From Escherichia phage EcF-vB, in the sequence record PV683228.1: 64,000 nucleotides of DNA; one strand, given 5' to 3'. The number at the start of each line of letters is the position of its first letter. The stretch's first letter is position 1. The notes below the pieces were generated by a model. It worked only from the letters and a program-made list of their open reading frames with translations, had not been told where the DNA came from and ran no database searches. The position numbers and the translations under genes are program-made. Of the stretch, positions 22,120 through 24,263 are shown piece by piece.

Positions 22120-24263
22120 TTACATAGAAACTCTGTCACGAATCTCAGCGATTTTTGCATCATTCATTCGGGATTCGCCTTTAATCTTAGTCCATCCGAG
22201 ATACCCGCACACCCTGTTAATCACAGAGATATCGTGTGAATGACAAACCTCACATTCTTCAACATCAGCCTTTGGTCTGTTACCACAATGTTCACAGATT
22301 GCTAAGTCAAAGTTGAGTCCCTGATAGAAACCTTTCAACATCCCTCTTGTAATACAACTTTTAAGTGCTGTTAAGTTTTCTGGGTTAGCTACCCTGACAT
22401 ACTGGATTCTCCCACCTCTACAGATATGGAAGAATGGCTCTTCTAAGTCCTGCTTCTCAAATGGTGAGATGTCTGCTGCAACATTCATATGAAAACTGTT
22501 TGTAAAGTATTCCTTATCAGAAACACCTTTGATAACACCAAACATATCTCTGAACTGTTTTAGCTGAGTTCCGCAAAGTGATTCTGCTGGAGTACCATAG
22601 ACGGCATATAAGAAGCCATCTTCATTTTTAAACTCTTCAGTTTTCATGTTGATGTATGCCAGAACATCGTATGCAAAACTACAGCTTCCAACTTCATGAA
22701 GTCGTTTACCTTCAGCAAGAACAGATAGCTCATCGAGCGCAGTAACACCAAAAGAAGCTGTGAAGGACTTCACGATATCCCAGCCAACCTTGTCAGTAGG
22801 TTTCTTAGTTCCTTTGTACAGACCACCTTGTGTGAATGCAAGAGGGTTAGAACTTGCTGGCATATTAGCAATCATTTCGTAGCGTTTCTTGTGGAAGCTG
22901 CGAATCATCTCTAGGTACTTATCAAGCTCTTTCCAGAAATCTAAACCATTCTCTTTAGAATACTGGTAAATCATCGGTAAGTTCAAAGATACAGCACCAA
23001 TGTTAGCACGACCAACGTAGAACTCTTCTCCATTCTCGTTAAGATATGGGGATAAGAAAGCTCTGCAACCCATCGGTGAAATTACCTTGCCAGAACGCTC
23101 AAAAGCTTCTGCTACAGCACCATGACCAGATACACTTAAGAAATCTGGATACATCGCTTTAGAGCAACACTCTATAGCTTTACTGTACAGGTGTCCTTGA
23201 CAGATATTCTCATCGTGTCTCTTCTGGTCATGAATATAAACCAGTTTAGGGAATACAACAGGCTTCTTACTCTTACCTTGTCCATTCATGCGAACATCAA
23301 GAATGGTGTTTGCAATCATGTATTGTAGCTGGTTGTCTTCATTAGACATGTCTGAGTCAAGTAAACCAAATGTTAAAGTTGTGAATGCAAAATCACCACG
23401 GCTGCAAGGTACAGTATTTAGCTTCATCTCTAGTGACTGGAAACCTTGAGTTAGTTCAATCTGTAGCTGCTCCATGACATAATTGTGGTAATGTTCTTTA
23501 GGAATACCGTAAGATGCTGCTTTCTCAGCATGATAGCGTAGAGACTTCTTAGCATACGGTACGAGTACCTTGTCAATCTCTGCTAAAGTAAAGCCACCAA
23601 ATTGCTGTGCAGTTGCTGAAAGAACTACGTCACCAATAACCTGTAAGGCTGACAGCACAGACTTCGGTTCACAGTATTCGATGCCAGACATTTCAAAGCC
23701 ACCTTTCAGTACTTTACCGATGTCAAACAGGCAACAGTTAATACCACCAAAAACTAGGTCTCTTAAATCATGGATGTAGATAAACCCTTTTTCAATGGCT
23801 TCAAGTTCCTCTGGTGTTAAATGGTACTGTTTAAAGATTTCTTTAGTCAGATAACCACGAATAATTGAACCTTTTGTAGAAATTAAACTGCTGTCAAAGT
23901 TAGCATTCTCTCTGTCACCTAAGAAGAGTGTATCTTTAGTCTTCTGGTAGAGTTCATCCCAATTTTGAGCAACTTCTTTACGGTAATTTCTATATGTTGA
24001 GTAAGACTCATAAATCTCGTGATTGACTTCTGCCAAAGCACCCTCAACAATACTGTGAATGTCATTTACAGAAATGAGTAAATTATTCTGCTTAGTGGAT
24101 TTTACCAGAATCCTCATAAATGCTGACTCAAGAGCTTGGGTAACATCTGGTGGGAGTTCTTTATAACCAACTCTATTAGCTGACTTTGTGACTGCTGCTA
24201 AAACTTTTTTGATATCAGGTTCTTCAAGTGAGCCGTTCTTTTAATAATCTGTACTTTGTTCAT
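22120..24263 (-). CDS. nrdD: anaerobic ribonucleoside-triphosphate reductase, with a -1 frame break near codon 9
   Basis: Glycyl-radical motif RVCGYLG and C-terminal Cys/His cluster; the ATP-cone start (MNKVQIIK, ATG at 24263) is in another frame, and the main frame upstream of MRIL reads KNGSLEEPDIKKVLAAV; one extra base in the A run near 24236-24245 fuses them. Confidence 0.75.

Follow-up and report, generated by a model that had tools for sequence, protein, structure and literature searches.

A probable homopolymer undercall at the start of nrdD in the record of a Felixounavirus phage

In the sequence record of Escherichia phage EcF-vB (PV683228.1), the gene for the class III ribonucleotide reductase, nrdD, is broken in frame a few codons after its start, and this break is very probably a base-calling or assembly error, namely the undercall of a short homopolymer. 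The record would have dropped one A of a five-A run, leaving the AAAA at 24239–24242, and the phage itself most likely has an ordinary enzyme of 714 aa with a complete N-terminal ATP-cone, whose translation would begin at the ATG at 24263, behind an AAGGGG ribosome-binding site. The frame break is, in this assessment, not a real biological feature, and the annotated start of the gene at the methionine of MRIL is a mis-annotation. Here, we describe the start region as it stands in the window (the whole 64 000-nt stretch of DNA that was analysed), the protein that one added base restores, the standing of the allele among relatives, the similar deletions found elsewhere in the window, and the alternatives that would leave the sequence as given.

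The start region of nrdD

On the minus strand of the window, the ATG at 24263–24261 lies 5 nt downstream of a Shine–Dalgarno-like AAGGGG (24269–24274, minus strand), as read from the sequence, and the 40 nt 5′ of this start codon are near-identical in all 22 relatives examined. In translation of the window, the ATG opens a short ORF of 21 codons, MNKVQIIKRTAHLKNLISKKF* (24198–24263, minus strand; stop at 24200–24198), of which codons 1–8 are the genuine N-terminus of NrdD and the remainder is out-of-frame read-through. An earlier, sequence-only reading of this DNA had placed an ATG at 24263 in the frame adjacent to that of nrdD, and this part of its claim stands; its further statement that only MNKVQIIK is encoded there before a stop does not, the ORF being 21 codons long. 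An offset of one base separates the frame of the short ORF from that of nrdD at the AAAA run at 24239–24242 (minus strand; TTTT on the plus strand). There, where relatives read AAAAA, a 1-nt deletion breaks the frame. The same offset produces a TAA stop in the nrdD frame (24241–24243, minus strand), directly 5′ of an orphaned coding segment. Beyond the TAA at 24243–24241, the nrdD frame is open from 24240 and reads KNGSLEEPDIKKVLAAVTKSANRVGYKELPPDVTQALESAF; 41 codons of the ATP-cone (KNGSLEEPDIKK…ESAF; 24118–24240, minus strand) are thereby left in the nrdD frame without a start codon, there being no ATG, GTG or TTG in that frame from 24240 until the ATG of MRIL at 24117. The lack of a start codon upstream of MRIL had been reported from the letters of the DNA, and it is borne out together with all the coordinates given for it.

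The ORF that begins at that ATG with MRILVKS encodes 665 aa (22120–24117, minus strand) and comprises the NRDD catalytic core plus only the second half of the ATP-cone, its C-terminal part carrying the glycyl-radical motif RVCGY and a CxxC…CxxC cluster. After one A is restored at 24239–24242, the full nrdD gene, as it occurs in relatives, extends over 714 codons (22120–24263, minus strand). Just 5′ of the nrdD ribosome-binding site there is a GC-rich hairpin, GGTCTC-TTCG-GAGACC (24288–24303, with no strand assigned), followed by a T-run that extends to 24283. This hairpin has the look of a terminator for the membrane-protein gene upstream, and the record of phage Tribble has a terminator annotated under the matching stretch. 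At the other end of the gene, a second hairpin, with 16 pairs and a T-tail (22076–22111, minus strand), stands directly 3′ of the nrdD stop codon and is terminator-like, with the appearance of a strong terminator. The gene for the activase partner, nrdG (161 aa; 20582–21067, minus strand), is intact, such that a radical-SAM activase is encoded nearby; the identical NrdG protein is found on 21 public contigs, with matches to PF13353 and Radical_SAM.

The restored protein and its ATP-cone

With one A added, the gene reads MNKVQIIKKNGSLEEPDIKK… and encodes a 714-aa NrdD with a complete ATP-cone. Residues 5–97 of the restored protein match positions 2–88 of the 88 in the Pfam ATP-cone model (PF03477), at 49.9 bits vs a cut-off of 25.8, whereas the MRIL ORF matches model positions 48–88 only and, at 21.6 bits, falls under that cut-off. 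A complete ATP-cone contiguous with the catalytic domain is thus present in all relatives and in the window after insertion of one A, but not in the window as written. The match of the two frames at the ATP-cone is no chance resemblance. The sequence-only reading had proposed that an added base within AAAAGAA would give MNKVQIIK(K/R)NGSLEEPDIKKVLAAV, and with it the usual start of an ATP-cone, and this proposal is well supported, in that the whole Pfam model is matched once the A is in place. Felix O1, L27 and Alf5 read AAAAAGAA at this point, the predicted base is also present in Z31, and the residue left undecided, residue 9, is K rather than R (the Felix O1 translation being MNKVQIIKKNGSLEEPDIKKVLAAV…). 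Alignment with the NrdD of related phages, which had been recommended as a check, agrees, since in Felix O1, Z31, L27 and Alf5 the annotated nrdD begins at the counterpart of the ATG at 24263; the contrary pattern, i.e., relatives that start NrdD at the methionine of MRIL, was not found among them, as no relative needs that start.

The identity of the restored protein is clear from its domains and from solved structures. The NRDD catalytic domain (PF13597) scores 382 bits on the window ORF, the glycyl-radical motif RVCGY and the cysteine cluster CEHC…CEVC are present in the translation, and the Gly_radical Pfam model scores 23.3 bits. Compared with the solved NrdD 9d3x, the restored protein gives an E value of 4.9e-78, in an alignment that starts at residue 4 and passes through the ATP-cone, whereas the match to T4 NrdD (1h78; E = 1.5e-75) begins only at query residue 118. 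The restored protein resembles the ATP-cone-bearing class III ribonucleotide reductases with solved structures (9d3x and the 8p23 series) across both ATP-cone and core; like them, it has the PMGCR motif, RVCGY and the C-terminal cysteine cluster, and nothing notable differs. T4 NrdD, on the other hand, is a class III ribonucleotide reductase without an ATP-cone, and its catalytic core is homologous to the window ORF; it shows that an enzyme reduced to the core can work. The MRIL ORF differs from it in not being a clean core-only protein, since half of an ATP-cone is retained.

Variation among relatives bears on the same segment. Of codons 1–49, 16 vary among the 17 distinct relative alleles, and 12 of these vary only synonymously when read in the restored frame, vs one of 15 and one of 16 in the other two frames of the same stretch. 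The 49 N-terminal codons are therefore a selected part of NrdD genus-wide, and they are under purifying selection in the restored frame. NrdD of Felix O1 (NP_944999.1, ORF117) and its Felixounavirus orthologues have the same upstream hairpin, ribosome-binding site and ATG as the window, and the window also shares the Felixounavirus gene order nrdA, nrdB, glutaredoxin, small membrane protein, nrdD, …, nrdG. The DNA of the start region is 96–98 % identical to that of Felix O1-type phages and, after the A is restored, the first 70 residues of the protein are identical. What sets the window apart from Felix O1 is the one missing A of the A5 run, through which the first eight codons and the other 706 stand in different frames. 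With the correction, nrdD of the window is typical of Felixounavirus.

Distribution of the four-A allele among relatives

The window belongs to the genus Felixounavirus. Its nrdD region is 96–98 % identical to those of >200 Felix O1-like phages, and the closest genomes are about 93–95 % identical to it over 24 kb. In both Felix O1 and Z31, NrdD is 714 aa long (the Z31 gene being annotated at 2145 nt), and an alignment of the start region has AAAAA (Felix O1, L27 and Alf5) vs AAAA (window) as its sole length difference; Z31 also reads AAAAA. The five-A form occurs in 17 of 17 distinct relative alleles. When 81 nt around the site were used as a query, the four-A allele was found in none of 214 Felixounavirus records in GenBank and no record was identical to the query. 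The best GenBank match was 98.8 %, which corresponds to one gap, and the sampled GenBank rows span 82 bases vs the 81 of the window, two partial matches excepted. Exact-pattern scans of IMG/VR found the four-A form on no contig and the five-A form on 19. Likewise, the extra base is present in all of the eight further contigs from ENA, Logan and NCBI on which an identical NrdG is encoded, and nrdD is called on them with a frontal ATP-cone, as a protein of 714 aa or, where the gene is split by an intron, of 399 plus 284 or 288 aa; contigs L029–L032 have the 714-aa form, with both ATP-cone and NRDD domains. In sum, the four-A allele is private among >240 related sequences. The contigs that share the NrdG of the window are only 93–94.5 % identical to it, and exact-protein look-ups with the 665-aa ORF, NrdA and rIIA found no identical protein on record.

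The nrdD gene of many relatives, including L27, Alf5 and contigs L027, L028 and L033, is interrupted at the Cys codon of PMGCR, which corresponds to about 23067 (minus strand) in the window. There are two types of insert, the first being a 315-nt group I intron (Rfam RF00028, 53.3 bits in L27; L001 3956–4270), and the second a 741-nt element with an HNH_3 homing-endonuclease ORF (L003 3956–4696). The nrdD genes of the window and of Felix O1 are without an intron. Separately, near-identical Felixounavirus sequence is filed under Campylobacter phage A132/A126 and within the 147-kb record of Staphylococcus phage SA1, which suggests that these records are contaminated or are chimeric assemblies.

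The privacy of the allele weighs upon the reading that takes the sequence at face value, i.e., that the deletion is a real, strain-specific event in a dispensable gene. In that event, which we regard as unlikely, the 21-aa peptide would be made from the true start and the phage would have, at best, small amounts of a 665-aa NrdD that arises by re-initiation at the ATG of MRIL; as half of its ATP-cone is missing, this protein would be a catalytic core whose activity is not regulated by dATP/ATP, or there would be no functional NrdD. The sequence as given does encode exactly the 21-aa peptide and the 665-aa ORF, and because T4 NrdD naturally has no ATP-cone, a core-only enzyme is conceivable. 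Moreover, the aerobic genes nrdA and nrdB are also present in the phage, which could thus tolerate the loss of nrdD under laboratory conditions; i.e., nrdD is probably dispensable in aerobic culture, so that a real frameshift at this very site would be tolerated, a point that counts against an artefact. However, the allele is private, there is no recognizable Shine–Dalgarno sequence 5′ of the MRIL ATG (GAGTCAGCATTTATG) and that ATG is 81 nt past the stop of the short ORF. The leftover half of the ATP-cone is also more likely to be harmful than neutral.

Other single-base deletions in the window

The sequence-only reading had left open whether the break was an error or a mutation, and an audit of the whole window points strongly to sequence error, because 1-nt deletions of the same kind also break essential genes in the window. 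For this audit, the 64-kb window was compared with the complete genomes of Felix O1 and Z31, and relatives' ORFs of at least 80 aa were tested for frame splits. There are nine distinct frame-split junctions in the window, each of which is a 1-nt deletion vs both Felix O1 and Z31. The deletion in nrdD comes in addition to these nine, since a piece of eight codons is not long enough to yield an HSP. In total, about ten 1-nt deletions are private to the window when it is set against both Felix O1 and Z31. They are mostly in short homopolymer runs, and most are in A/T runs, with T5 or A5 in the window vs T6 or A6 in relatives. In the control comparison of Felix O1 with Z31, the same test gave one frame-split flag per direction, both in small ORFs.

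The affected genes are spread over the window. On the minus strand, the deletions are at 3342 in an ORF19-like gene (3220–3518; TTTTT-C vs TTTTTAC), at 7962 in a gene for an Rz-like spanin (7683–8026; C3 vs C4), at 17973 in nadV, which encodes a nicotinamide phosphoribosyltransferase of 593 aa in relatives (16432–18212; T5 vs T6), at both 30087 and 30297 in an ORF107-like gene that is annotated as NAD synthetase in Felix O1 (30085–30548; T5 vs T6), at 30699 in the exodeoxyribonuclease gene (30547–31577; T5 vs T6 in Z31 or TTTCTT in Felix O1), and at 62342 in the gene for an ORF60-like conserved protein (62259–62737; T5 vs T6). The deletion in nrdD is at 24242 (T4 vs T5 as read on the plus strand). 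On the plus strand, the DNA polymerase gene (37416–40144) has a deletion at 38398 (AAAA-AG vs AAAAGAG in Felix O1), and the DNA ligase gene (41610–42742) has one at 41830 (T2 vs T3). A further deletion, at 59429, is intergenic (A5 vs A6). Felix O1 and Z31 encode DNA polymerase in one ORF of 909 aa, vs pieces of 337 and 560 aa in the window, and the deletion in this gene is absent from all of 215 GenBank relatives. The T5 allele of nadV is shared only with the unannotated GE_vB_B3 (MG969406.1).

The frame-breaking events in the window are all deletions, as no private gene-breaking insertion was found. There are also no nonsense substitutions in genuine genes of at least 150 aa; the stops that were flagged fall within short antisense or alternative-frame ORFs or 5′ of the true start of the ligase gene. 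Such a strict deletion-only bias, without other signs of decay, is a technical signature and not an evolutionary one. Pseudogenization, or the decay of a phage remnant, was considered for the window and rejected, given the lack of nonsense substitutions in real genes, the intact synteny and the virulent character of the genus, Felixounavirus phages being virulent. A global collapse of homopolymers was rejected as well, since the window has a nearly normal spectrum of run lengths, with 39 intact A/T hexamer runs; the retention of these hexamers means that the errors are sporadic and do not form a uniform collapse.

The break in nrdD is best taken as an artefact because about ten similar single-base deletions break other genes of the window, including that for DNA polymerase. 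The deletions cannot all be real, because a lytic phage with DNA polymerase, ligase and other conserved genes frameshifted would not be viable, and the reading of the nrdD deletion as a true mutation therefore has to contend with some nine others like it. From what is seen directly (the deletion, its position, its privacy, the domain restored and the similar deletions), we infer a technical rather than a mutational cause. Some observations go against an artefact: besides the intact hexamers, the affected run in nrdD is short, at four to five A, and the deletions at 3342 and 38398 are not pure homopolymer events. There is a precedent for records of this kind in the UNVERIFIED GenBank draft of Salmonella phage GE_vB_NS7 (MG969414.1), in which homopolymer undercalls, like the deletions of the window, break conserved ORFs. 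In that draft, the same 100 nt about the start of nrdD have lost four single bases, all of them at other runs, whereas the later, resequenced record of the phage (MW006482.1) has 82 bases vs the 81 of the window, as do Felix O1 and relatives. The change from A5 to A4 at nrdD codons 8–9 is unique to the window and is not present in GE_vB_NS7.

The comparison with the two reference genomes also brought out stretches of the window with a poor counterpart, or none, in one or both of them, i.e., 40144–40420, 47314–49082 and about 9863–12086, the last of which has no counterpart in Felix O1 but does have one in Z31. Felix O1 and Z31 have an HNH endonuclease gene after the DNA polymerase gene that is absent from the window, and the tail-fibre region of the window is divergent from both. 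These poorly matched stretches are ordinary mosaic variation. In the early-gene region, a 13-nt motif, CCCTCCCGTTGAT, has five exact copies within the first 3.8 kb of the window (plus strand; 288, 884, 1449, 2671 and 3719) vs 0.02 expected by chance. It sits inside longer repeated intergenic cassettes (…TCATTCCCTCCCGTTGATTAGTA…, with TTTTTGAATCTCCTAG nearby), which are probably repeated promoter, terminator or ribosome-binding-site modules on the minus strand.

Recoding and slippage

If the deletion were real, full-length NrdD might still be made by recoding. The short ORF contains an A_AAA_AAG heptamer (24204–24210, minus strand) that is in register in the shifted frame, two codons 5′ of the UAG. 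Among the heptamers known in E. coli, none is more prone to slip than A_AAA_AAG. A dnaX-type −1 ribosomal frameshift at 24210–24204 would rescue a product of 714 aa with RTAHLKNLIS instead of KNGSLEEPDI at residues 9–18, which would be recognizable by its RTAHLKNLISKK peptide; counted from the ATG at 24263, the heptamer has the correct X_XXY_YYZ register, and a ribosome that slips back by one base on it would continue exactly in the nrdD frame (…ISKK|VLAAV…). We nonetheless consider this rescue highly improbable. The two-frame arrangement is not conserved, in that every relative examined or counted has a single in-frame ORF or an in-frame first exon, and the bases of the heptamer are ordinary in-frame Lys-Lys codons in relatives. 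The 75 nt 3′ of the heptamer fold no better than shuffled sequences (z = +0.58, with 141 of 200 shuffles at least as good), no Shine–Dalgarno-like element is evident upstream of the heptamer and there is no Rfam match. Furthermore, the rescued product would have a damaged nucleotide-binding segment in its ATP-cone, and an artefact already explains the deletion without any need of −1 frameshifting. Set beside the dnaX-type programmed −1 frameshift, then, the window has the identical heptamer in register but lacks both conservation and stimulatory elements. A programmed −1 frameshift was accordingly rejected on the grounds of conservation, downstream structure and Rfam, and the in-register A_AAA_AAG is a chance slippery site, of relevance only if the deletion is real. 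Were the rescue true, the phage would have an ATP-cone with ten substituted residues (9–18), perhaps insensitive to dATP inhibition.

Slippage at the break itself was also rejected, as the codons of the 0 frame, AUU AUU AAA AGA, provide no X_XXY_YYZ and a +1 slip meets a stop. Transcriptional slippage on the A-run, which would restore the frame in some of the mRNAs, is in our view the least probable of the alternatives. The break does sit in a homopolymeric A tract; however, that tract is only 4 nt long, and the arrangement is conserved in no relative. Productive transcriptional slippage needs roughly seven to nine or more identical bases.

Implications

An undercalled base in nrdD is mainly of value as a matter of quality control, as the record under-calls short homopolymers and about ten genes appear truncated or split as a result. 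Pseudogene counts, searches for recoding and protein clustering that involve this genome should be preceded by correction of the deletion sites. New annotation after such a correction should give 714 aa for nrdD, 909 aa for DNA polymerase, 593 aa for nadV and about 366 aa for ligase. For nrdD itself, annotation from the MRIL start conceals the ATP-cone, the domain that switches NrdD on and off allosterically. If, on the other hand, the deletion were real, the phage would carry a class III ribonucleotide reductase whose ATP-cone has been knocked out naturally; this would not be a new kind of system, but such a knockout would be of mild interest for the regulation of ribonucleotide reductases.
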